Virus record (IMG/VR): IMGVR_UViG_3300042879_003566
Span: 16,458-80,457 of that record
DNA: 64,000 bases
Reading direction: 5' to 3' (one strand)
DNA from: a virus
Below the pieces are notes generated by a model. It was not told the origin of the DNA. It saw only the letters and a list, made by a program, of their open reading frames with translations, and ran no database searches. The stretch's first letter is position 1; every line of letters starts with the position of its first letter. Below, piece after piece: positions 11,795 through 56,488 of this stretch. The position numbers and the translations under genes are program-made.

Positions 11795-11823
11795 CTGGTC
11801 AGTTTAACGTCATGACCAGGACG
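11795..11823 (-). ncRNA. repeated pseudoknot motif A, copy 1
   Basis: CGTC-CT-GGTC-AT-GACG-TTAAACT-GACC(AG). Confidence 0.7.
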
Positions 11824-15234: not shown

Positions 15235-15261
15235 AGATGCTTTTAACGTCATCCCAGGACG
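15235..15261 (-). ncRNA. repeated pseudoknot motif A, copy 2
   Basis: CGTC-CT-GGGAT-GACG-TTAAAAG-CATCT. Confidence 0.6.
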
Positions 15262-16147: not shown

Positions 16148-16174
16148 AGGCAGTTTAACGTCATACCTGGGACG
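16148..16174 (-). ncRNA. repeated pseudoknot motif A, copy 3
   Basis: CGTC-CC-AGGT-AT-GACG-TTAAACT-GCCT. Confidence 0.7.
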
Positions 16175-19079: not shown

Positions 19080-19106
19080 GGATGAGTTTAAGGACATCCC
19101 AGGTCC
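19080..19106 (-). ncRNA. repeated pseudoknot motif A, copy 4
   Basis: GGAC-CT-GGGAT-GTCC-TTAAACT-CATCC; stem 1 covaries relative to the other copies. Confidence 0.65.
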
Positions 19107-21555: not shown

Positions 21556-21631
21556 TGGTACCCGAGGTGAGATTCGAACTCACGCTGGAGCGATTTTAAG
21601 TCGCTTGCCTCTTCCGCTGGGCTACTCGGGC
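21556..21631 (-). tRNA. trnL: tRNA-Leu(UAA) with short variable loop; CCA encoded
   Basis: GCCCGAG/CTCGGGT-A-CCA; anticodon arm AGCGA-CTTAAAA-TCGCT; variable region CCAGC; T arm GTGAG-TTCGAAT-CTCAC. Confidence 0.9.
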
Positions 21632-21843
21632 GCACTTGGACTTACGCTTACATCAATGGATGCATGCTGCCAAGTGTGGTCATGGGGCAATGGCTCAGTG
21701 CCATATTCCCATGTGTCGTAGTCTTCTTCATTACGTGGATCGTCTTCGATCAGTACGTAATGCGGAGAGTTGTCATGAATGAAATCTCCGATGTTTGCCA
21801 TAGCCATAGCCAGGAGTTGATCATCGGTGTAGTCGTGTTCCAT
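21622..21843 (-). CDS. small acidic hypothetical protein
   Basis: 73-aa ORF; its 3' end overlaps motif B and the tRNA 5' end. Confidence 0.5.
   Translation of the reverse strand: MEHDYTDDQLLAMAMANIGDFIHDNSPHYVLIEDDPRNEEDYDTWEYGTEPLPHDHTWQHASIDVSVSPSAPE
21633..21676 (-). ncRNA. hairpin motif B (GGCA...GUAAGUCC), copy abutting tRNA-Leu
   Basis: CACTTGGCA-GC...GC-GTAAGT-CCAAGTG. Confidence 0.6.
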
Positions 21844-21898
21844 GGTGAAGGACCAGCCCTAGTATCGAGGCTAAGGCTGGTCAATTTGGCTTCGGCCT

Positions 21899-23605
21899 TT
21901 AAGAGGCTAGCTGTTCATTGCGGGTTTGCAATGCCTCATGGAACCCTTCGGTGTATTGGTCTCGCTGATCAGGCGTCAGGTTTTGATTAGATAAACCTTT
22001 GATTTGATCAACGGACATCATGCCACCGTCAACCTTGAGTTGAATGGTGAACCTGGGTTTACCTTCTACCATACAAAGCACAATGAAGTGCTTCTTCTTA
22101 CGAACACCTTCAGCGTAACCAGAGGCAGAGCCAACGCAATTGCGTACGGCTTGACCCCACATGGCGAGCTGATGCGTGTCGTGTGGCTGGAAGAACGACC
22201 AAGTTTCACCATCAACAGATACTTTGATGGGTTCAGGGAATAAATCCTGCGGTAGCTTTTCATTTGGATTTTGAATCTTCCATGACTCTGCCTGGACATG
22301 GTCATGGAATTCATTGATGCGCCAACGTTTGGGAGGATTTAGATCCTTGTGCTCAAGCACGCGGTTAAGCATGTTGATTGTGTCTGACCATTCGTAGAAT
22401 CCATAAACGTGTAGACCAAGGTCACGTTCCATGGTGACGTTAGAGCCATTAGCACGTACACGTTGCTGCTCTTCTTCATAGTATTTGGCAAAGATGCCAA
22501 AGAAAGAAGCAACAGGCATGTGTTGACGCAACCAATCAATAGTCTTGTCTTGCACGGCGTACGAACGAATGCGTATGCCTAGCAATTCTTGAATGTGGTT
22601 TTGATAATAATCAATGGGACAATCAGGCCAGATGCCATGAACATAGCTAATGGAATCAACTAGTTTCTTAGCTTGATTAAAAGGTTGTTTGATGTTGACT
22701 TGTAGTTTGTTGTTCTTATCTTCATAGACAGCAATAGATTCATCTAGTTTTTGCTGGACCCACTTACGGAAGAATGGTGTATTAAAGATGTGTTTGACAT
22801 TGCGTAGTGGCAGCCAATCAAGGTATGCAGGCGTTCTTAATTCAGTAAGTGAATAGAAGTTATCAACAGTTAGCTGCCAAGTTGATTGCTCTTCTTGACT
22901 TACAAAGACAGGAGGAATCTCAAGAGCTTGGGCAATGCCAGCACATTGAAGGCGGCTAAAAAGGAAACGGCTATCATCCCAGGTGGGAATTGATTCTTGC
23001 AAGGCTTTACTGAATTCTTCAACAGCCTTGGCAATGTTCCGTCCCTTTTGGGTATAACTACCAAGATAACGAGCACGCCATTCACGATCTTCTTTGCCAT
23101 CAATGATGTCTTGACGAGTTACAAGACGACGGTCAATGAAGAATGTTGAGCGGCCAATCTCAATCTTGTTGTAGTTATCAATGTTGTTGATGATATCGCG
23201 TGGAATTGTCTTACGTGCTGATGCAGTGTCACGGAAGACACGTGCATAGCCATAGACATACTTGTCTTCTTGGCCAGCTGGCGGCAGCCATCCGGCGTAC
23301 CAACATTGTTCGAAGTGATAAAGGATTGCGCGTGTCTGGAGACGGGCCTGCGGAGTAGCAACATCCACAGGCTTGGTAAATGAGTGGTGACGATCTGGCG
23401 CAAGCTGCGTGTTAATCGAATCAATTGCATCTTGCTGCAGTGATTCACGCACCACGTCATAAGGAATGACATGCGGGATGTTGCCAAGGGGATACTTGGC
23501 TTTCTTGGCAGGAGATGATTGCTTTTGTTGGCGAACCAAAGCTTTGAGCTTGGGATCGTAGGCAATCAACTCGGTCTGCAAGTTTTGAGGAAGTTGGAAT
23601 TGCAT
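21899..23605 (-). CDS. PcfJ-like domain protein
   Basis: C-terminal HD......L...GQAVRNCVG...Y.......TIQL......QIKG..N. Confidence 0.75.
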   Translation of the reverse strand: MQFQLPQNLQTELIAYDPKLKALVRQQKQSSPAKKAKYPLGNIPHVIPYDVVRESLQQDAIDSINTQLAPDRHHSFTKPVDVATPQARLQTRAILYHFEQCWYAGWLPPAGQEDKYVYGYARVFRDTASARKTIPRDIINNIDNYNKIEIGRSTFFIDRRLVTRQDIIDGKEDREWRARYLGSYTQKGRNIAKAVEEFSKALQESIPTWDDSRFLFSRLQCAGIAQALEIPPVFVSQEEQSTWQLTVDNFYSLTELRTPAYLDWLPLRNVKHIFNTPFFRKWVQQKLDESIAVYEDKNNKLQVNIKQPFNQAKKLVDSISYVHGIWPDCPIDYYQNHIQELLGIRIRSYAVQDKTIDWLRQHMPVASFFGIFAKYYEEEQQRVRANGSNVTMERDLGLHVYGFYEWSDTINMLNRVLEHKDLNPPKRWRINEFHDHVQAESWKIQNPNEKLPQDLFPEPIKVSVDGETWSFFQPHDTHQLAMWGQAVRNCVGSASGYAEGVRKKKHFIVLCMVEGKPRFTIQLKVDGGMMSVDQIKGLSNQNLTPDQRDQYTEGFHEALQTRNEQLAS

Positions 23606-23633
23606 GGTGAGTTCAGAGTAAGTTCGTAGTGTG

Positions 23634-23661
23634 TGAGCAGTTTAATGTCATGCTCAGGACA
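23634..23661 (-). ncRNA. repeated pseudoknot motif A, copy 5
   Basis: TGTC-CT-GAGC-AT-GACA-TTAAACT-GCTC. Confidence 0.7.
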
Positions 23662-23666
23662 GGGGA

Positions 23667-23924
23667 TCAGTCTAGATCGTAATCGGAGGTGTCGACGAGT
23701 TGCCAGTGAAGATCGAGCTGATCAAGATAGCAGCAGAAGCCATCTTCATCAGTAGGGATTTGTTGTTCCTCATCCAGCTCAAAGCTTGCTGTGCAAAGAG
23801 CTGGAGCCCATTCTTCAGGTTCGAAATATGTTGCCCGATAGAGCAAACGCATTTCGTCAACCACTGCTGTAACTGTGACATTGGTACCTTCGATGATGGT
23901 GTCTTCAATAGCAAGGACAGACAT
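23667..23924 (-). CDS. acidic hypothetical protein
   Basis: 85-aa ORF. Confidence 0.6.
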   Translation of the reverse strand: MSVLAIEDTIIEGTNVTVTAVVDEMRLLYRATYFEPEEWAPALCTASFELDEEQQIPTDEDGFCCYLDQLDLHWQLVDTSDYDLD

Positions 23925-23927
23925 GAG

Positions 23928-24125
23928 TCAGACCTGAATGAATTGCTTGGGTTTCATGAAGTCAGATGTTGGTCCATACTTCTCGATAAGATCAGGGAAT
24001 GCGTCGAGCAAACGCTGACGATTCACTGGATCTGCAACGCGCAGTGCTTGTGCAATCGATGAAACAAATGAACCACCATGTGATTGCATGAGGCAAATCA
24101 TGGCGGTCAGCTGAGCTGAATTCAT
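23928..24125 (-). CDS. hypothetical protein
   Basis: GGSFV..IA.A...AD..N..RL..AFP motif; likely start MNSAQL. Confidence 0.6.
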   Translation of the reverse strand: MNSAQLTAMICLMQSHGGSFVSSIAQALRVADPVNRQRLLDAFPDLIEKYGPTSDFMKPKQFIQV

Positions 24126-24147
24126 GTGTTGAATTGCAATGGAATGT

Positions 24148-24174
24148 AGGCAGTTTAACGTCATACCCAGGACG
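24148..24174 (-). ncRNA. repeated pseudoknot motif A, copy 6
   Basis: CGTC-CT-GGGT-AT-GACG-TTAAACT-GCCT. Confidence 0.7.
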
Positions 24175-24179
24175 TATCT

Positions 24180-24377
24180 TTAGAATAATTTAATGTTTCG
24201 TTTGCTCAATCCTGTGCCAGGAATTGAGAACGATCCAAGCAGTCCAGACGGACGTGCGTTGAGTGTGAATTGGATGGGGCCAAGTCGTATCGATTTGGTG
24301 AACGACTTGATGCCCCGTTCCGTGATGTTGACTCCGGCAATAGTTTTGTCGAAGTTAAAGGCTGAGCGTTCAGTCAT
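24180..24377 (-). CDS. DUF4236-like small protein
   Basis: KSIRLGP...LN....G...SIPGTGLS. Confidence 0.55.
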   Translation of the reverse strand: MTERSAFNFDKTIAGVNITERGIKSFTKSIRLGPIQFTLNARPSGLLGSFSIPGTGLSKRNIKLF

Positions 24378-24666
24378 AACAAGAATTGGATTCGGCCAAT
24401 GTAAATCTCAATTGAAAGTATTCATCTTGATCTTTGTCTTTGGCGTAGTAACGGGCTTCAAATCCACCAGAGCCAACAACGTTGTTCTTGATGGATTCTC
24501 TTAGCAAATGGCGTGCCATTGCTTTAAGTCTTGCGATGGATGGAACTGCGTGCCCATTACCTTCAGTTGTTTGCCACTGCCAGTCAACCGCTGTCATAGC
24601 AATGTAAACACGTTGAAAATCAAACGTGTCAATTACGTTATCAATCAATGATTCTTTTGAGTCCAT
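24370..24666 (-). CDS. hypothetical protein
   Basis: FDFQRV..AM....W.W....VPSI...GSGGFEA. Confidence 0.65.
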   Translation of the reverse strand: MDSKESLIDNVIDTFDFQRVYIAMTAVDWQWQTTEGNGHAVPSIARLKAMARHLLRESIKNNVVGSGGFEARYYAKDKDQDEYFQLRFTLAESNSCYD

Positions 24667-24733
24667 TAGTTGTAGATCATGTCGAGGGACAAAATGATTG
24701 CACTAAGGAATAACATGGAGCAGAGAAGGATCA

Positions 24734-24940
24734 TCATTTGAGGTCATCAGGAAGGAGCATTTGAGTGTCTTCGTCAGACATGTTGGTCATCATGAACTTC
24801 TCTCCGTTGGGTGAAATGAAACCACCAACGAAACCAACTCCGTACTTGTCAGCTGATTCCTTCATCTTTGCTACGAGTTGCATAGCGGATAGACGTTGGA
24901 GATCAATGGAGTCTGGGATGCGGGGAGTGTTGTCAGGCAT
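24734..24940 (-). CDS. hypothetical protein
   Basis: 68-aa ORF. Confidence 0.6.
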   Translation of the reverse strand: MPDNTPRIPDSIDLQRLSAMQLVAKMKESADKYGVGFVGGFISPNGEKFMMTNMSDEDTQMLLPDDLK

Positions 24941-25054
24941 TGGAATGAAGTGGAATGATTGATGGAGTGTAGCAGGGAATAGGGGGAGTAAACATTAGTT
25001 TATCTAATAGAATTAATGGTTCCCCCCTGGTACTCCCTGCGGGGTTGTAGGGGT

Positions 25055-25312
25055 TCAGCTGTGCATAGCTTGATGTTCTTTCCATGCATTGGTATGCATT
25101 TCATCCAAAGTCAAAGGCGGTTCATTGACTTCGTCTGGATCAAAGTCAGCATCAAGGTAATTCACAAGCATTGGAATGATTTCCTCTTCGAGTAAGCAAT
25201 AGATGGACGGAGTGAGATGCTGGTCCATCTGATGCCGCTTCGCTTCACGTGCCATGACATCTTGGAGGATAGTCAATGCTTCACGCACGTGGACATACTC
25301 GTTTTGTTCCAT
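25055..25312 (-). CDS. hypothetical protein
   Basis: 85-aa ORF with ACACCACACC leader. Confidence 0.65.
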   Translation of the reverse strand: MEQNEYVHVREALTILQDVMAREAKRHQMDQHLTPSIYCLLEEEIIPMLVNYLDADFDPDEVNEPPLTLDEMHTNAWKEHQAMHS

Positions 25313-25338
25313 GGTGTGGTGTGTAGGTTGAATGGGAT

Positions 25339-25393
25339 GACCTGGGACTTACACCATTATTGAGAAGAGTTCTCAATTGTGGATGCCCAGGTC
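25339..25393 (-). ncRNA. hairpin motif B
   Basis: GACCTGGGCA-[inner hairpin]-GTAAGT-CCCAGGTC. Confidence 0.65.
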
Positions 25394-25413
25394 TTGTTGT
25401 GTTGCCAGAGAAA

Positions 25414-25656
25414 TCATCTGGGATCAAGGATGATCCAGCCCGTGTAGTTATCGCTGGTGCGATCCACACGAATTAAGCGTTTCTCTTCGAGGCTTTCAAT
25501 GGTGCGTATGTAATCAGCCATTCGATTTCCTTGGACCGGAATCTTTGGTACGAAACATGGAGTGTTCGCATGTTTCCTCCTGTGATTTAAGTAATACAGA
25601 TAGAGATTCCGTTGGTTAATACTCAGGCTGAGTGGTGCTGAGTTGTCGATTTGCAT
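25414..25656 (-). CDS. hypothetical protein (winged-helix-like)
   Basis: 80 aa, coupled to the upstream ORF. Confidence 0.55.
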   Translation of the reverse strand: MQIDNSAPLSLSINQRNLYLYYLNHRRKHANTPCFVPKIPVQGNRMADYIRTIESLEEKRLIRVDRTSDNYTGWIILDPR

Positions 25657-25991
25657 TAGATCAATCCAAGAAGACTAAGCCAACTATCGGGATGGTCCGG
25701 TTCTACTTCGTCGTCGTCCGGTGTGAACGCGACTGAGTCGAACGACCACTCTTCGATTTCCTCGTTGGTCGGGACATCGTACCAGCCTTGGAGTTCTTTG
25801 TCGGCGTACCGTGGGATCCAGTAGCACCGGAGGATGCCTCGCTTGTTGCGATAGACATCGCCGTTGCTTGGACGTTCGCCTTTCTCTCCGTCGTAGTTGA
25901 CTTCGGCTTGGTACTGTTGGTCGAGGTCTTCTTCTGAGAAGGGGACGTAGCCGAAAGATTCGGCAATTTCTTGGGTGACGGGGTGAAGCAT
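25656..25991 (-). CDS. hypothetical protein
   Basis: C-terminal EEW..DSV..TPD...VEPD..DSWL.LLGLI. Confidence 0.65.
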   Translation of the reverse strand: MLHPVTQEIAESFGYVPFSEEDLDQQYQAEVNYDGEKGERPSNGDVYRNKRGILRCYWIPRYADKELQGWYDVPTNEEIEEWSFDSVAFTPDDDEVEPDHPDSWLSLLGLI

Positions 25992-26060
25992 GAGATTAGT
26001 ACCGTGATGAGGATTGAGATGAGTGCGATGACATGAATAATGATGTCATCTTCTTGAGGA

Positions 26061-26198
26061 CTAGGAGTCTTCGTCGTCATAGATGACGCCCTCCCACTCA
26101 TCTTGATTGGATTCTGTCATTGCTTGATATTGTTCTTCTGCCATGTCAGCCATGGCATCAAGCAAGTCAGCGTTGTAGTTGTTGTCGAGTTGAGTCAT
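26061..26198 (-). CDS. 45-aa acidic peptide (not in ORF track)
   Basis: MTQLDNNYNADLLDAMADMAEEQYQAM...YDDEDS, downstream of motif B. Confidence 0.5.
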   Translation of the reverse strand: MTQLDNNYNADLLDAMADMAEEQYQAMTESNQDEWEGVIYDDEDS

Positions 26199-26224
26199 GG
26201 TTTGAATTGGTATAATGAATTGAA

Positions 26225-26269
26225 AGCCTGGGACTTACGCACCGAGCTGGCGTCGGTACTGCCCAGGCT
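26225..26269 (-). ncRNA. hairpin motif B
   Basis: AGCCTGGGCA-GTACCGA...TCGGTGC-GTAAGT-CCCAGGCT. Confidence 0.65.
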
Positions 26270-26301
26270 ATTTGTAGTACTGACGTACTAACGGACGTGG
26301 G

Positions 26302-26724
26302 TCAAACCTTGACGTGAGACCAAGCTTTGCCCTTGTGGATATTGGAGATGGTGTGTTGGCTAACGCCGTACGCCTTACCGATCTCGATGTACGCACGATT
26401 GGTGCTCTTGAATTCCTTCATGATTGAAGGCGTTGCAAGGACACCTTTGATCTCGCGGACATCGCTCTCGCTGAGCTTGGCATTGCAGAAGGCAGCTGGC
26501 TTAATTCTCCCGGAGAATTCGCCGCTTGTGATCTTCTTAACCAATGCCATCTCACCGTCCTGCTGGAGAGCAGGCCGAGGCGTGGTATTGAGAACCTGAC
26601 GGATGGGTAGACCAAGAGTCACAGAAGTTCCGTCTTTTATGACGGAGATCGTGACCTTGCCTTCTCGGGTGATAACCGAGACGTGATCAGGGTTCTGGAT
26701 GTCGAGTTGACTGATGGCTTCCAT
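26302..26724 (-). CDS. protein with C-terminal HTH related to that of 20421..20765
   Basis: NAKLSESDVREIK...IGKAYGVSQHTISNIHKGKAWSHV. Confidence 0.6.
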   Translation of the reverse strand: MEAISQLDIQNPDHVSVITREGKVTISVIKDGTSVTLGLPIRQVLNTTPRPALQQDGEMALVKKITSGEFSGRIKPAAFCNAKLSESDVREIKGVLATPSIMKEFKSTNRAYIEIGKAYGVSQHTISNIHKGKAWSHVKV

Positions 26725-26847
26725 GAGTTGAGTGGAGTGCAGTACGAGGATAGCTGGATGATTACTGGATGCAAGTACTAGGTCTAGTCCACAGCACACT
26801 CTCCCACGCCACCGGTAGTGGCGCAGGGGGGAGTGGGGACTGACCTT

Positions 26848-27204
26848 CTACCTCATGTAGAGGTAAGAGCCTGCCCAATCAGCATTGTGGAGACAAGCTT
26901 CGTAGGAGGCGTCATCCAGTAGTTGGTAGCGGACGTGAAGAGCTGGTGCCTTCCAGCTGGCGGGCTTATAGACTGCACCTGTCTCACGTGAGACAAATGC
27001 ATGTACAGATCGCCCGACACGTCCGGCACCAGAATTTGTGACTTGAATGATCTTGTAATACTTGGTACCACGAACAATCTCGTGGTTCAAGTAGTCAGGA
27101 TATTCTTCACGTTGTGGATACTGCTTGTAGTAACGCTTGGTTAGTACATCGATAACGGCATTGATGCGATCTTCGATGAGCTGCGTTTTCTCAGCGAGTT
27201 TCAT
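26848..27204 (-). CDS. conserved cyanophage-type hypothetical protein
   Basis: KYYKI...SVHAFV...TG.VYKPASWKAPA.HVRY; likely start MKLAEK. Confidence 0.7.
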   Translation of the reverse strand: MKLAEKTQLIEDRINAVIDVLTKRYYKQYPQREEYPDYLNHEIVRGTKYYKIIQVTNSGAGRVGRSVHAFVSRETGAVYKPASWKAPALHVRYQLLDDASYEACLHNADWAGSYLYMR

Positions 27205-27385
27205 GTTGAGTTTGCTGTGAGTGGATCTTGGTGATGTCGACGCCCAGTGCACCGCCAATCGTTAGTGCCATTACTGCAATAGCAAAGACACCAACGAGGA
27301 AGTTGGCTATGGGCATCTCATTTCGAGAACCATAAGAATCAAGTTGAACATACTGATTCTTGCCAAGTGAGACAATGCGTTTCAT
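27191..27385 (-). CDS. small membrane protein
   Basis: One TM segment, FLVGVFAIAVMALTIGGALGV. Confidence 0.55.
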   Translation of the reverse strand: MKRIVSLGKNQYVQLDSYGSRNEMPIANFLVGVFAIAVMALTIGGALGVDITKIHSQQTQHETR

Positions 27386-27410
27386 TAGAATAAGAATGAA
27401 GTGAACAGAG

Positions 27411-27484
27411 GCAGTCCTGGGTGAGGACTGCAGAAAACCCACCGCCGATACGAATTCGTATCAACGGAAGGGTTAAGTGCAGTC
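27411..27484 (-). ncRNA. motif C (alternative-pairing element), copy 1
   Basis: GACTGCA-CTTAACCC...GGGTTTTC-TGCAGTC-CTCACCCAG-GACTGC. Confidence 0.55.
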
Positions 27485-27485
27485 G

Positions 27486-27875
27486 TCAGAAAGGAATTTC
27501 TTCCAGCGTCGGCTCAACCTTGGATTCAGCCACTGGTGTGACTGCAGGCTTAGCCTCCGGTGATGCACCGATGACAGCACGGACTCGCGTCAGTGCAATC
27601 TCTGGATATTTGAGGGCTACCAGCTGGTCATCTTTGACGTAATGCGTGCGAATACTGGCGATCCGCACATCATACTGGACAAGGATCAGCTGCTGACCAA
27701 CCACCAACGTACCGTTGTTGTAGGCAGTAAGTAGCCCGTTGCCATTGTTGAATTTGATGCGGCAGACACCATCGAACTGGTCCTTGACATACATGGTGAT
27801 CGCAAGGAACTCGCGACCTTCATGCACAGCAGTTTCCATGTAAGCAATGTTGCCGATGATTGTGTTGCTAAACAT
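27486..27875 (-). CDS. SSB-like OB-fold protein
   Basis: N..IIGNI start, beta-rich core, acidic tail LEEIPF. Confidence 0.55.
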   Translation of the reverse strand: MFSNTIIGNIAYMETAVHEGREFLAITMYVKDQFDGVCRIKFNNGNGLLTAYNNGTLVVGQQLILVQYDVRIASIRTHYVKDDQLVALKYPEIALTRVRAVIGASPEAKPAVTPVAESKVEPTLEEIPF

Positions 27876-27898
27876 AATCAATGTGAAGTAAGGGACTA

Positions 27899-27951
27899 GC
27901 AGGAATGAATCCTGCAGGAAACCCTGGTGTTACTCAGGGTTAATTGCAAGA
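27899..27951 (-). ncRNA. motif C, copy 2
   Basis: TCTTGCA-ATTAACCC...GGGTTTCC-TGCAGGA-TTCAT-TCCTGC. Confidence 0.55.
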
Positions 27952-27952
27952 A

Positions 27953-28141
27953 TCAGTTGTTAGCAAGCTGTGTATACAACTTGCGGGCACCAGCGAGTGA
28001 GAGGCTGGTGCTTTGGTCGTAACCTTTGTGACCCTTGCGGATCAACTTGGTTACATGCGCCACATTTCCCTCCGTATACACGAAGAAGAAATAGATGGCT
28101 TGGTCCGTTTCAACTGCCAGGGTCTTATCAGGGTTAGACAT
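27953..28141 (-). CDS. hypothetical protein
   Basis: Start MSNPDK follows the ACACCACACC leader. Confidence 0.55.
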   Translation of the reverse strand: MSNPDKTLAVETDQAIYFFFVYTEGNVAHVTKLIRKGHKGYDQSTSLSLAGARKLYTQLANN

Positions 28142-28219
28142 GGTGTGGTGTTGAATGTGCCGTGCCCATCTCGGCGTTGGGCAATGGCTGGACCAGGGAT
28201 TGCACCTGGTCACTCGCTT

Positions 28220-28384
28220 CTACGAATCAGCTGTTGTCATGGGTAATTCACCAGTTGGTTCAATCGCCTTGGCGATCTGCACCCTGGTATTACGTATCCA
28301 CATCTGAATACGTTCTTTGCTCTGGTCTTCTGCTACTACCTTGGCAGCAGCGATCAGACCAGTTGCTAGCTTGGCTCGTAACAT
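28220..28384 (-). CDS. 54-aa protein, probable first gene of the leftward unit (not in ORF track)
   Basis: MLRAKLATGLIAAAKVVAEDQSKER..., with AGGAG upstream and motif B further upstream. Confidence 0.55.
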   Translation of the reverse strand: MLRAKLATGLIAAAKVVAEDQSKERIQMWIRNTRVQIAKAIEPTGELPMTTADS

Positions 28385-28414
28385 TGTGAACTCCTGGTTA
28401 AATCAATTGAATTG

Positions 28415-28447
28415 TTTGGACTTACCCGCGCTGTGCGCGGTGCCAAA
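28415..28447 (-). ncRNA. hairpin motif B
   Basis: TTTGGCA-CCGCGC-ACA-GCGCGG-GTAAGT-CCAAA. Confidence 0.65.
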
Positions 28448-40631: not shown

Positions 40632-40828
40632 AACAACAACCAATTTCAGATCTTTCAGTTAATCTTGCTGTTGATCCAAAAAGTTCAATTTCGTTTCGAG
40701 GCAACCCTCAAGAGTATCTCGCCAATTTCATTGGACGAGCCGGTAATACGCGTCCCGGAGGCATGCTGATTGGTGCGGATAAAATAATGGAAGAGATTCA
40801 AAGTAATTCCAGAAGATTCCGTGGCTGA
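40628..40828 (+). CDS. hypothetical protein
   Basis: 66 aa; overlaps both neighbours. Confidence 0.5.
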   Translation: MKQQPISDLSVNLAVDPKSSISFRGNPQEYLANFIGRAGNTRPGGMLIGADKIMEEIQSNSRRFRG

Positions 40829-41173: not shown

Positions 41174-43518
41174 TGGCTGGGGACGCAAAGGCCAGACTTA
41201 AAGAAATCATTGACTCCTACCTCGAAAAAGACGGTGGAGCTTCAATCGATACTGGCGTCGTTGCGGCACACCTTGCGCAGATGAAATTATTCGGCATCCG
41301 CCAGGGTGTCGAATTTTTTCCTGCCCAAGACAACTTTGGCAATCAACGCAAAGACTTTATTGATCGCGTAATTAAATACAACCAACTTGATACGCGCCTT
41401 GATTCGGTTTGGGATTATTTCCTTTGTGATGGACAGGGGTTGTTTTACATCCGTCCTACGCAAAATAATTACCGTCTTTACTTTTTCCGTAAACACGAAT
41501 ACAGAAGTTTCTACAATATTGACGGTGAGCTAGATGAAGTCGTCATCATTTATAGCTATAAGGTTCGTCAAGGTCTTGGCTTCCAGCAGGACATTGAAGT
41601 CAGTAACCTTAGTGGTCCGGCTGGCATGGGGCGGGGCGGCGTCAAGCGTTACATCCGTCTGTCGATTAAACGTAAAACAATCGAAGAAACGCATTCTGAA
41701 GGCGAGATTTCTTTCGACACCAACTACCAATCTGTCCCTGGCCGCACAAAAACATTTAAAAATACTCTTGGTTTTATTCCCTGCGTTGAAATCTTTAACA
41801 ACGCTAAGGGCTTCTCGACAGAGGGCGTTGGTGAATTCGATGCGTTAGCCAATCACATCTGTACGCATGACGAAATGGTTCGCACCATGCGTAAGAACGT
41901 TCAGTTCTTTGGTAACCCAACACTGCTTTCGTCTCGTCCCAAGACAGACCTAATGGAGTCCGGTGGCGAAACCGTTGTCCAGCGTCCGTCTATTGCAGCT
42001 AACTCTGGTTTCATGGGCGGTGGTGCTCTGAGTCAGTCACGCTTCAAAGCAGATCCCGTCTATCGCGGTGTTGATGGTCAGCTCCGCGTTCCACGCATCA
42101 TTGCCAACCTGGAGCCAAACGACCGAGTTGGTTATATCGTCCCTGACGCCATCACTGGTGACCAAAATTCTTTTGCACGCCAGTATCGAGAGGAAATCCG
42201 TACCGCCCTTGGTGGCGTTGATGAACTCTCAATTTCTGCAGGTGTTACTGCAACTGAATACAAATCTTTGTTTGGACGTGTTTCTGCAACATCCAAGAAA
42301 AAAGCAATTTCTATTTATACCTATGGCATTTGCCGTTGTTTGGAACTGATTATTTTCCAAGAAGAACGTCTTTTCCGTGACACCCTGGCCGCTGCTGCAG
42401 GTCTTGAAAAGCCCCTGGAATTACCAGAGACAGCAACGCCTGAAGACTTTGTTGCCTACGAAGATGCCATGGGCATGTTTGAAGATCAAGTCAAGCAGTT
42501 GATGATGGCTTGTCTGCGTACCCAGCAGATTCCTCCTGGTGTTTTAGGCCTTATTCCCGATGGTGATGTCACCGTTCAGTGGCGTTGGTTGGGTCCTGTT
42601 TACGAAGATTCCACCCAAGATATTCTCAACAACTCCATTGTTGTTCGAAATCTGCAAGAATTAGGTGTTGATAGCATTGAGGCACTGAAATACCTCTTTC
42701 CGTCTAAAACGGATGAGGAACGGGCCGAGATGCTATCTGGGTTCCCGTTCAGAATGGTGAACGAATTACAGGGTGCATACTCTGCTTTCGCTCGCTTAGT
42801 GGGAGGAATGATGCAGACCCCCCACCCGCAATCACCGGATTTACCGATGGCTGCGGACCCGCGATTGGATTTGACCCCATATCTGTATCGCACTTTAGAA
42901 GCCTTACAAAAGGAGATGAGTTATGCAGGACGCTACCGTCCAATCGATCCCACAGACGAGCCAAGCACCAGTGGCCGTCGCTCCGAGCAGCTACGTGGTG
43001 GCAGCACCGCAGGCAGCTCCGGCGCAGGCTCCAGTGGCTTATCAGGTGGGTACCAGCTACCCCCAAGCGGTGCCTCAGGCGGCCCCCAGCTACCAATCAG
43101 CCCCTACTCAGTACGCCCCCCAATCCCAACCGGAGGCACCTCAGGGGAATCCTTGGGAATCGGCGTTCAACAAGGTGGTGAACCTGCTGAGCGCACCAGT
43201 CCAATCCCCGTTCCAGGGTCAACAGTATCCAGCGACGACTCAGTTTACCCCGGCCAATTACGGACAGCCCAGCAGCCAAGCTACGCAACAATCGGCTCCG
43301 CAGACCTGGTCTCCCAGCCCGGCATACTCGCCCAGCTCTTCCCAAACTTCCTCGACTCCCTCCTTGGAGCAAATCGCGGACCTGGTGGGAATGAGCCAGG
43401 AAAGCCGTCAGGTGATGGACGCGTTCGGGATCGAAGCTCCGGCTCTGCTGAACAACTACGCTCTAAACCTGGAGCAAATGCTGGACAGCGCCGTCGCGTG
43501 GGGAAACCGCGCCGCTGA
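41173..43518 (+). CDS. portal protein with a long low-complexity C-terminal extension
   Basis: Position between terL and scaffold/MCP; N.LGFIPCVEIFN...GVGEF clip-like motif; roughly 590-aa core. Confidence 0.75.
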   Translation: MAGDAKARLKEIIDSYLEKDGGASIDTGVVAAHLAQMKLFGIRQGVEFFPAQDNFGNQRKDFIDRVIKYNQLDTRLDSVWDYFLCDGQGLFYIRPTQNNYRLYFFRKHEYRSFYNIDGELDEVVIIYSYKVRQGLGFQQDIEVSNLSGPAGMGRGGVKRYIRLSIKRKTIEETHSEGEISFDTNYQSVPGRTKTFKNTLGFIPCVEIFNNAKGFSTEGVGEFDALANHICTHDEMVRTMRKNVQFFGNPTLLSSRPKTDLMESGGETVVQRPSIAANSGFMGGGALSQSRFKADPVYRGVDGQLRVPRIIANLEPNDRVGYIVPDAITGDQNSFARQYREEIRTALGGVDELSISAGVTATEYKSLFGRVSATSKKKAISIYTYGICRCLELIIFQEERLFRDTLAAAAGLEKPLELPETATPEDFVAYEDAMGMFEDQVKQLMMACLRTQQIPPGVLGLIPDGDVTVQWRWLGPVYEDSTQDILNNSIVVRNLQELGVDSIEALKYLFPSKTDEERAEMLSGFPFRMVNELQGAYSAFARLVGGMMQTPHPQSPDLPMAADPRLDLTPYLYRTLEALQKEMSYAGRYRPIDPTDEPSTSGRRSEQLRGGSTAGSSGAGSSGLSGGYQLPPSGASGGPQLPISPYSVRPPIPTGGTSGESLGIGVQQGGEPAERTSPIPVPGSTVSSDDSVYPGQLRTAQQPSYATIGSADLVSQPGILAQLFPNFLDSLLGANRGPGGNEPGKPSGDGRVRDRSSGSAEQLRSKPGANAGQRRRVGKPRR

Positions 43519-56189: not shown

Positions 56190-56488
56190 TGGCTGAAAAA
56201 CATAAAAAAGCAGCGGCTGCAGCCAAGATTGCTAAGGACAAAATGGCGTGTAACAAGCCTCGCCGTACACCTGGGCATCCCACCAAGTCCCATGTTGTCA
56301 AAGCCTGCAAGGGAGGAGAGGAAAAGATTATTCGGTTCGGCCAACAGGGCGTTGAGGGCGCTGGGAAAAATCCGACCAGTGCCAAAGAAAAAGCAAGGAA
56401 AAAGTCATATTACGCAAGACATAACGCCCAAGATTCGAACCCCGACATCATGTCTGCCAGGTACTGGTCCCACAAAGTAAAGTGGTAG
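56189..56488 (+). CDS. conserved basic phage protein
   Basis: KSHVV.A...G.EKIIRFGQQG...ARH.......SARYWS. Confidence 0.7.
   Translation: MAEKHKKAAAAAKIAKDKMACNKPRRTPGHPTKSHVVKACKGGEEKIIRFGQQGVEGAGKNPTSAKEKARKKSYYARHNAQDSNPDIMSARYWSHKVKW

Follow-up and report, generated by a model that had tools for sequence, protein, structure and literature searches.

A hairpin with a conserved internal loop precedes genes and transfer RNAs in Synechococcus phages

Here we report that motif B, a small RNA hairpin found in a 64,000-nucleotide (nt) stretch of viral DNA, is a real, strand-specific element under strong structural selection. The stretch, called the window throughout, comprises bases 16458-80457 of the 80,457-bp IMG/VR virus record IMGVR_UViG_3300042879_003566, which is rated complete. 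Motif B is virus-specific, typically lies about 26-32 nt before a start codon or within about 10 nt of the 5' end of a transfer RNA (tRNA), and is exchangeable at orthologous sites with an unrelated pseudoknot, motif A. We suggest, at a probability of about 0.42, that it is a cis-acting RNA module at a 5' boundary, which protects or insulates the downstream RNA of cyanophage transcripts.

Results

A hairpin under structural selection

Four minus-strand hairpins in the window had been picked out by an earlier reading made from the sequence alone, and re-reading bears out all four (Table 1). Each shows GGCA, then an inner hairpin, then GTAAGTCC (RNA GUAAGUCC), and ViennaRNA folds give predicted hairpins for every copy, with z scores from -1.6 to -5.2. 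The string GTAAGTCC occurs six times in the window, always on the minus strand, against 1.16 expected, a count reached by none of 100 shuffles; its occurrences at 2000 and 61523 lack the GGCA/hairpin frame and were rejected as members. In the whole 80-kb genome, all four occurrences of the composite pattern are on the reverse strand; the forward strand and a reversed control have none.

Megablast of the region against phages gave no match, so relatives were sought through proteins. This protein-anchored search collected 39 viral contigs, 31-97% identical over a 568-amino-acid protein, most of which carry one to seven copies of motif B. An alignment of 80 distinct copies (A1), with a structure of eight outer and five inner pairs, shows pairing in 82% of cells, changes on both sides in 11 of the 13 pairs, and a covariation score of 0.471, compared with 0.150 in shuffles (0 of 500 reach the observed value) and at most 0.124 when the partners are slid. 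A covariance model (R1), the kind of search that the sequence-only reading had proposed, gives 134 matches in 35 related loci, every one of them on the gene strand. Applied to the window, R1 returns the four copies as its only credible matches. A fifth match, at 56266-56298 (+) with 19 bits (CCUGGGCA-7 nt-AAGUCCCAUG), lies in coding sequence after an 855-amino-acid structural gene, has neither the GU nor the inner hairpin, and is probably due to chance.

The loop had been described as identical among the copies, and its conservation in related phages was named in advance as one point by which the reading could be refuted. It is clearly conserved, with GGC, UAAG and CC unvarying in 107 distinct copies, while the other loop positions vary across relatives, so that identity holds for these three blocks and not for the loop as a whole. 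The fourth base of GGCA is the most variable (A86/G10/C6/U5), the base before UAAG is a purine (G95/A11/U1) and the base after it a pyrimidine (U98/C9). The outer stems, said to differ freely, do covary, but next to the loop their freedom ends: a C-G and a U-A pair are kept there in 73 and 79 of the 80 aligned copies. The first inner "pair" is U.U in 46 of the 80 and otherwise Watson-Crick or G-U.

The motif B core reads 5'-CUKGGC-N-(cap, a stem-loop)-R-UAAG-Y-CCMAG-3', with CUKGG/CCMAG as the conserved pairs of the outer helix. Its internal loop (C-N opposite R-UAAG-Y) probably consists, in our model, of a C-G pair, a UAA bulge and a flipped or extruded pyrimidine. The commonest natural form is a 28-nt hairpin with about five outer and two or three inner pairs; minimal copies have five to eight outer and two or three inner pairs, about 8-11 bp in total, and most matches to the strict search pattern are 24 nt in span. 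Caps shrink to as little as UCC-NNNN-GGU, with loops of GNRA or UNCG type, and apical loops vary freely. Such tiny, arbitrary caps imply that the functional unit is the loop with its two flanking helices, and the inner hairpin, arbitrary in sequence and length, would merely cap it. One widespread inner-hairpin variant (..ACCGA-CGUAAGUA-CGGU..) has a further GUAAGU within the apical loop, where an alternative form has CGCCAAC; the GUAAGU-loop variant (contigs L011 6064-6096, L019 7181-7213, L026 1433-1465, L031 8304-8336 and others) precedes at least four different genes.

Placement at the 5' edges of messages and tRNAs

In the window phage, an early/replication arm runs leftward and a structural arm rightward. 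Among isolates it is nearest to S-EIV1, a Synechococcus phage from Arctic freshwater (DNA polymerase 69% identical, the 568-amino-acid PcfJ-like protein 45%), and it is itself an S-EIV1-like freshwater Synechococcus phage. Three of its copies had been placed shortly before start codons, and the spacers are indeed 30, 26 and 26 nt, to ATGs at 28384, 26198 and 25312. Copy 1, with loop CA/GUAAGU and inner hairpin CCGCGC-ACA-GCGCGG, sits in the 5' leader of a 54-amino-acid gene, the first in the leftward (early) arm, and orthologous copies precede this gene in five phages. Copy 2 lies in the intergenic spacer after open reading frame (ORF) 26302-26799, and copy 3, whose inner hairpin is long (31 nt), begins 20 nt past the stop of ORF 25414-25656. 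The same arrangement is seen across the S-EIV1-like set, where the distance from core end to the next ATG has a median of 32 nt (interquartile range 30-34, n = 137 copies). Motif B usually starts 0-30 nt past the stop of the previous gene, copy 1 with its place at the head of the arm being the exception.

Leaders that follow motifs A and B are alike (about 195 leaders, contigs L005-L043 and the window): 22-32 nt long, with 5-11% G and ACUCAAYUCAA-like words. Shine-Dalgarno-like words are found in 1 of 96 leaders after motif A and 6 of 99 after motif B (7/195 in total), and among the three window leaders only that of copy 1 has an AGGAG Shine-Dalgarno-like box. These CA-rich, unstructured leaders suggest Shine-Dalgarno-independent initiation. 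In contigs L005, L007 and L040, a 34-nt insert with two small hairpins (ACUACUCA..UGAGUAGU and ACUCAC..UGAGU) lies between motif B and the leader.

The fourth copy had been read as ending next to tRNA-Leu and overlapping an ORF, and this holds: it ends at 21633, one base from the tRNA start at 21631, and lies inside ORF 21622-21843. The encoded 73-amino-acid protein has no Pfam or PHROG match. Its codons (..HTW..SIDVxVSPS..; ..HTW..SIDVSVSPS.. in the window) are conserved with synonymous changes, so that this stretch is dual-coded; the position of the copy is kept in more than 25 relatives, its inner stem shows compensatory changes, and its length differences are multiples of three. S-EIV1 itself carries a decayed orthologue of this ORF/tRNA copy and two variant copies of motif B (GGCG and AUAAGUCC); in its record KJ410740, motif B stands at 41434-41480 and 40724-40789 on the minus strand. 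Other tRNAs are abutted by motif B on two further contigs (Table 1), and the three cases, on unrelated contigs, are independent. Copies that adjoin tRNAs speak for a role that is not purely translational. Motif B would then mark the 5' edge of whichever functional RNA follows, the ribosome landing pad in an mRNA and the 5' end itself in a tRNA.

At -10 to -5 the upstream flank of motif B is rich in A and poor in G. No position ahead of the conserved CUG exceeds 0.47 bits, which leaves no fixed-distance promoter hexamers, and promoter-like sites in the region are at chance (nine found, 10.7 expected). A promoter with its -10 box just upstream and its transcription start at the CA of GGCA was rejected, since no signal stands at a fixed position and covariation of the outer stem places both its strands within one molecule. 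Upstream of many copies (L011, L019, L026, L028, L034, L035, L037, L072), at 8-25 nt, there is a short hairpin and, behind it, a recurrent box gCCAAUAC that is in some cases tandem (GCAAUACAUGCCAAUAC); this combination may represent a terminator with a promoter or an additional regulatory element.

Interchange with a pseudoknot

Motif A is an H-type pseudoknot of about 27 nt (CGUCC-loop-GACGUUAAAC-partner) whose loop pairs with its 3' flank. A pattern search of the related loci found 163 copies of motif B and 136 of motif A. When the downstream proteins were clustered, 5 of the 17 families with at least three members had motif A in some phages and motif B in others. These are the 47-amino-acid gene after window copy 2 (B22/A11), the 568-amino-acid PcfJ-like gene (A34/B3), and genes of 95 (B30/A1), 267 (A24/B1) and 65 (A8/B1) amino acids. 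The window itself has motif A at 24148-24174 (-), where relatives have a minimal motif B behind the same upstream flank (..aaacattaa.tta.tctaaagat..).

Motif A shares GUCC and GACGUUAAAC with the sequence GUCCGAAGACGUUAAACUAC of coremin, an exoribonuclease-resistant RNA (xrRNA) known from plant viruses and further RNA viruses. Coremin stalls Xrn1 and scanning ribosomes, and a variant with a Watson-Crick pseudoknot is known (PMC10520033, PMC10321173).

In a separate case of change at these sites, two phages that are 97% identical differ by an extra gene inserted directly after motif B (L005 6850-7160 against window 26000-26225, minus) and bounded on either side by a copy of the duplicated leader ..CACCAAUUCAAAC(C/U)AUG, a form of modular shuffling at regulatory modules.

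Spread across phage lineages

A strict 20-base pattern was found in at least 119 viral stretches. The same pattern in 596 Gb of prokaryote genomes gave 13 matches, which is chance level, and most of them score poorly; R1 over 151 cyanobacterial genomes gave no credible copy, its two weak matches both lying antisense to the KMSKS coding region of a tRNA synthetase. In all, 246 distinct copies were collected. Many carrier contigs share almost no protein with the window phage (at most one, different per locus; tblastn at 1e-6 to 1e-8), and the nearest isolates of these carriers are likewise Synechococcus phages.

The other carriers include T7-like cyanopodovirus relatives, which have an RNA polymerase 68% identical to that of S-CBP1/S-RIP2 and, ahead of the gene for this enzyme in their early region, the motif; S-CBWM1-like myoviruses, with a major head protein 66% identical and a single motif copy directly before that late gene; T4-like cyanomyoviruses related to S-SRM01; and a GC-rich class in which the motif adjoins portal and connector genes. 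The isolate S-SRM01 has a copy (36.6 bits) at MW015081 77569-77626 on the plus strand, and the whole records of the isolates S-CBWM1 and S-CBP1 have none. On the GC-rich contigs L063, L111, L129, L091 and L047, the motif follows a phrog_4652 gene and is itself followed by GGC-rich short repeats (..ggcagggcgttggcgaggtctggtgtggcgggg..) and then a head-tail connector gene.

Thirteen distinct copies form a T4-like subclass in which the apical loop is enlarged and exactly complementary, over 9-13 nt, to a segment just before the ATG. This complementarity covaries between the copies, a T4 late-promoter-like box of the TATAAATA type lies between the apical loop and its partner, and in S-SRM01 the long-range helix dominates the nested fold. 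By analogy, the subclass looks like the classic T4 scheme, in which the ribosome site would be masked in read-through but not in late transcripts, built here on a motif B scaffold. Proteins downstream of this subclass begin MKEYYTYAYLRED..YYIGKG and appear GIY-YIG-like by eye, with no match in Pfam.

Table 1. Positions of motif B, motif A and adjoining features (window coordinates unless a contig or isolate is named)
Feature	Position	Strand	Remarks
Motif B copy 1	28415..28447	-	outer stem TTTGG/CCAAA (RNA UUUGG/CCAAA); covariance-model score 34.8 bits; fold z -3.1
Leader of copy 1	28385..28414	-	30 nt, up to ATG at 28384 (ORF 28220-28384)
Motif B copy 2	26225..26269	-	outer stem AGCCTGGG/CCCAGGCT (RNA AGCCUGGG/CCCAGGCU); 51.7 bits; z -4.0
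Leader of copy 2	26199..26224	-	G-poor, no Shine-Dalgarno sequence (..UUCAAUUCAUUAUACCAAUUCAAACC-AUG)
Motif B copy 3	25339..25393	-	outer stem GACCTGGG/CCCAGGTC (RNA GACCUGGG/CCCAGGUC); 45.3 bits; z -5.2
Leader of copy 3	25313..25338	-	G-poor, no Shine-Dalgarno sequence; upstream of 85-amino-acid ORF 25055-25312
Motif B copy 4	21633..21676	-	outer stem CACTTGG/CCAAGTG (RNA CACUUGG/CCAAGUG); 46.0 bits; z -1.6
73-amino-acid ORF	21622..21843	-	C-terminal codons also encode copy 4; TAG stop within the D-arm region of tRNA-Leu
tRNA-Leu (UAA)	21556..21631	-	ARAGORN; Rfam tRNA 56.5 bits; gap to motif B 1 nt
Motif A	11795-11823	-	
Motif A	15235-15261	-	
Motif A	16148-16174	-	
Motif A	19080-19106	-	
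Motif A	23634-23661	-	upstream of the 568-amino-acid PcfJ-like gene
Motif A	24148-24174	-	
Motif B abutting tRNA-Asn	L197		gap within ~10 nt
Motif B abutting tRNA-Thr	L069		gap within ~10 nt
T4-like subclass	L269 1995-2091 = S-SRM01 MW015081 77569-77665		also L062, L135, L137, L138, L045, L049, L146, L158 and others

Discussion

We propose that motif B serves as a 5' guard or insulator of the cistron or tRNA that follows it. Once the RNA has been made, or has been cut in the A-rich, G-poor spacer immediately before the module, the folded element would become the 5' edge of the downstream RNA. There it may hinder 5'-end-dependent decay, be it by RNase J as a 5'-3' exonuclease or by RNase E through 5' sensing or scanning, and it may stop the unstructured ribosome landing pad, or the tRNA, from forming pairs with sequence that lies upstream; what the conserved loop would add to a plain hairpin is a particular fold or a protein contact. 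RNase E and RNase J are both essential in cyanobacteria, which rely on them (PMC8682795), and the A-rich, G-poor upstream flank is a plausible entry site for a cut. A generic role at a 5' boundary is preferred over a sequence-specific cut because motif B swaps with an unrelated pseudoknot, stands at near-zero spacing from tRNAs, and is absent from host genomes.

Several points weigh against a guard or insulator. The proposed function is drawn from position and from the exchange with motif A, and the function of motif A in phage is likewise putative. Known exonuclease-resistant RNAs use ring-like pseudoknots, and none is visible in the 28-nt hairpin with its GNRA/UNCG caps. The UAAG bulge has no conserved partner, as downstream CUUAC-like words are equally common after motif A; a pseudoknot between the GUAAG bulge and such words, specific to motif B, was rejected on this ground and because the words are absent in other lineages. 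An invariant UAAG is not obviously needed by a generic guard, and a protein contact fits it at least as well, while the restriction to Synechococcus-type phages argues for a host-specific partner over a self-contained fold. Finally, a folding-strand test of G-U versus A-C says little about the strand, with 38 versus 33 over fixed columns and only ten informative internal mismatches, five of them C.A in the ORF-embedded class.

The alternative that survives best, though we consider it unlikely, is that motif B is an operator for a sequence-specific RNA-binding protein of host or phage, which would read the R-UAAG-Y bulge between the helices and control translation, localisation or processing of the downstream cistron. 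Invariant UAAG, GGC and CC with conserved flanking C-G and U-A pairs, in a frame that otherwise covaries, are the classic signature of a protein site, and an asymmetric loop of 6 nt opposite 1-2 nt recalls RRM or coat-protein operators. Confinement of the motif to phages of a single host group, Synechococcus, suggests a host partner common to them, and cyanobacteria carry RRM-type RNA-binding proteins. A host protein would, however, be left without an evident cellular target of motif B form, since neither the 596 Gb of prokaryote sequence nor the 151 cyanobacterial genomes hold a credible copy. Almost no protein is common to the window phage and the other carrier lineages in the loci compared, and the 20 early-arm proteins show no RNA-binding or nuclease domain in Pfam, where the only matches are PcfJ-like, DUF7717, GP88, DUF5895 and weak HTH. 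Exchange with the unrelated motif A is hard to square with a single specific binder, and motif B precedes tRNAs as well as cistrons.

Improbable, and clearly more so than an operator, is a cleavage site, at which the UAAG loop would be cut by RNase E, by some other endonuclease of host or phage, or by the RNA acting on itself, and cistrons and tRNAs would be freed from a polycistronic transcript. The intercistronic placement 0-30 nt after the upstream stop, the tRNA-abutting copies in three lineages and the conserved single-stranded loop within a helical frame are consistent with such a site, and there is precedent in the small ribozymes and processing sites that flank phage tRNAs. Against it, both halves would stay base-paired after a cut in the loop, copy 1 in the leader of a first gene has nothing upstream to separate, no Rfam ribozyme family matched, and motif B swaps with a pseudoknot that has no such loop. 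Nor does any register of R-U-A-A-G-Y-C-C fit the signature of cyanobacterial RNase E, which in single-stranded RNA has an A at -3 and a U at +2 (PMC8682795); this comparison covered the loop, not the A-rich upstream flank.

We regard as very improbable an element that acts in DNA, either a folded single-strand recombination or cassette site (attC- or PeSL-like) or a hairpin promoter. The same variant of motif B does stand before non-homologous genes and the same gene behind different variants, the gene inserted in the 97%-identical relative lies right after motif B with the leader duplicated, and T4-like relatives have the motif in company with putative mobile endonuclease-like genes; the succession of outer stem, unpaired spacer, inner stem and variable end also recalls folded attC sites. 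Yet shuffling is expected around any repeated regulatory sequence, so no dedicated recombinase is needed, and none was found next to motif B. There are no attC R-box triplets, the absence of fixed-distance hexamers and the chance-level count of promoter-like sites speak against a promoter, and the fixed distance to start codons, the shared leader and the dual coding with structure kept argue for action in the transcript. A DNA hairpin promoter of N4 type was rejected because the genome has no giant virion RNA polymerase gene.

Least credible of all are the precedents to which the sequence-only reading had pointed, processing by RNase III as in T7, or antitermination of the nut/put type with RNA polymerase as its target: motif B superficially resembles T7 R1.1 in its two stems and asymmetric internal loop, recurs in an early co-directional gene arm and, in the T7-like lineage, lies in the early region upstream of the RNA polymerase gene, but T7-type RNase III sites need about two helical turns (~20 bp of duplex), far above the ~8-11 bp of minimal copies, and have internal loops much less conserved in sequence; the element is a single hairpin with freely variable GNRA/UNCG-type caps, with no boxA/boxB-type loop, no two-hairpin put layout and no boxA-like word conserved in its flanks; and the myovirus relatives have just one copy, ahead of a late major head gene, and other copies directly precede tRNAs.

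Returning to a module at the 5' boundary, a portable guard would explain how long early transcripts are expressed cistron by cistron, largely without Shine-Dalgarno sequences, in hosts whose RNA turnover is driven by RNase E and RNase J. A bolder form of this proposal, which we hold to be doubtful, is that motif B and the coremin-like motif A together are the bacterial-virus counterpart of the xrRNAs of eukaryotic RNA viruses, tiny self-folding blocks before cistrons and tRNAs against RNase J/E that have spread horizontally among at least four unrelated Synechococcus phage lineages. If true, this would be the first xrRNA-like system in phages, and its hairpin, which bears a UAA bulge but no obvious pseudoknot, would be a new minimal fold; nuclease-blocking RNA folds would then extend from eukaryotic RNA viruses to DNA phages. 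Motif B is in any case a candidate new Rfam family and marks cyanophage contigs in metagenomes. As a sequence-defined part of 28 nt it is a candidate mRNA stabiliser or insulator for cyanobacterial synthetic biology, and the two cultured carriers, S-EIV1 and S-SRM01, make experiments feasible.

Relation to known elements

Motif B is undescribed in Rfam and in the literature searched by exact string. Rfam 15 finds only two tRNAs in the whole window at gathering threshold, and between 21400 and 28700, with E up to 10, only tRNA and two chance matches (E 1.2), neither of which overlaps a copy. Exact-string literature searches in RNA or DNA letters returned unrelated papers only, and BLAST of the 30-nt minimal form against GenBank phages gave partial chance matches only, by a method unsuited to split motifs.

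Known structural modules were also considered. A kink-turn has a 3-nt bulge, then tandem sheared G.A/A.G pairs on the same strand, with an essential A at position 1n; it was rejected here, as no register of motif B puts GA after the bulge and the sole candidate for the 1n base is the highly variable fourth base of GGCA. Loop E/sarcin-ricin, the 11-nt tetraloop receptor, UAA/GAN, the S8 site, the Y RNA/Ro site, Csy4-type repeats and attC were compared by eye, and none fits.

The RNase III sites of T7 early mRNA (R0.3-R1.3 type) are, like motif B, hairpins with asymmetric loops between the cistrons of a polycistronic early phage transcript. The duplex of the 28-nt form is too short for that class, however, its loop is near-invariant across unrelated phages, and motif B occurs in a first-gene leader and before tRNAs as well. 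Antitermination RNAs, found downstream of early promoters, consist of a boxA with a boxB hairpin that has a GNRA-like pentaloop (lambda nut) or of two stem-loops whose bulges are conserved (HK022 put), and motif B has neither layout. PeSL cassettes of T4-type phages (PMC2839356, PMC4122927) resemble it as repeated regulatory sequences between small genes, in plastic regions where genes are gained, lost or replaced between close relatives. A PeSL combines a sigma-70 promoter (-35/-10, fixed spacing) with a terminator-like stem-loop of loose sequence, whereas motif B has neither fixed promoter boxes nor a U-tract rule and conserves its internal loop strictly.

Coremin (xrRNA_C/xrRNA_WCC; PMC6546385, PMC10520033, PMC10321173) is likewise a small (20-45 nt), sequence-constrained viral module in intergenic or untranslated regions, and it forms a block where the protected RNA begins on its 5' side, a role that is only proposed here. 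In xrRNA_C a first hairpin with a YGAD/YGNNAD loop is followed by the conserved spacer GUUAAACUAC and a second hairpin (PMC10520033, PMC6546385). Motif B shows neither the YGAD loop nor the GUUAAACUAC spacer nor a second hairpin, and a pseudoknot is not evident in it. Motif A comes closer, with the stem of the first hairpin and GUUAAAC present, but differs in its loop and its Watson-Crick pseudoknot. The setting differs too, as the virus here is a DNA virus and the host a bacterium with RNase J/E and not Xrn1, and nuclease resistance of motifs A and B is only putative.

The class 3 xrRNAs of plant viruses (xrRNA_LT; PMC7668246, PMC12397905) share the order P1, internal loop, P2 hairpin, and in the T4-like subclass the apical loop also pairs downstream. 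In these RNAs the apical loop (L2B) is conserved in sequence and forms a pseudoknot with a close 3' partner, and J1/2 holds a G (PMC7668246). By contrast, the apical loop of motif B is free in most copies, and only the 13 T4-like copies pair with a distant segment; that long-range pairing covers the ribosome-binding region about 40 nt away, across the TATAAATA box, and looks like translational masking.

The role proposed here is that of the 5' stabiliser hairpins in mRNAs of bacteria and phages (ompA-type leaders), in which a 5'-proximal stem-loop counters 5'-end-dependent decay. In these, neither the sequence nor an internal loop is conserved, and they do not make up a portable family common to unrelated viruses. 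Although it appears to belong to none of the families compared here, motif B, as a module at the 5' boundary, would act much as a 5' stabiliser or an xrRNA does.

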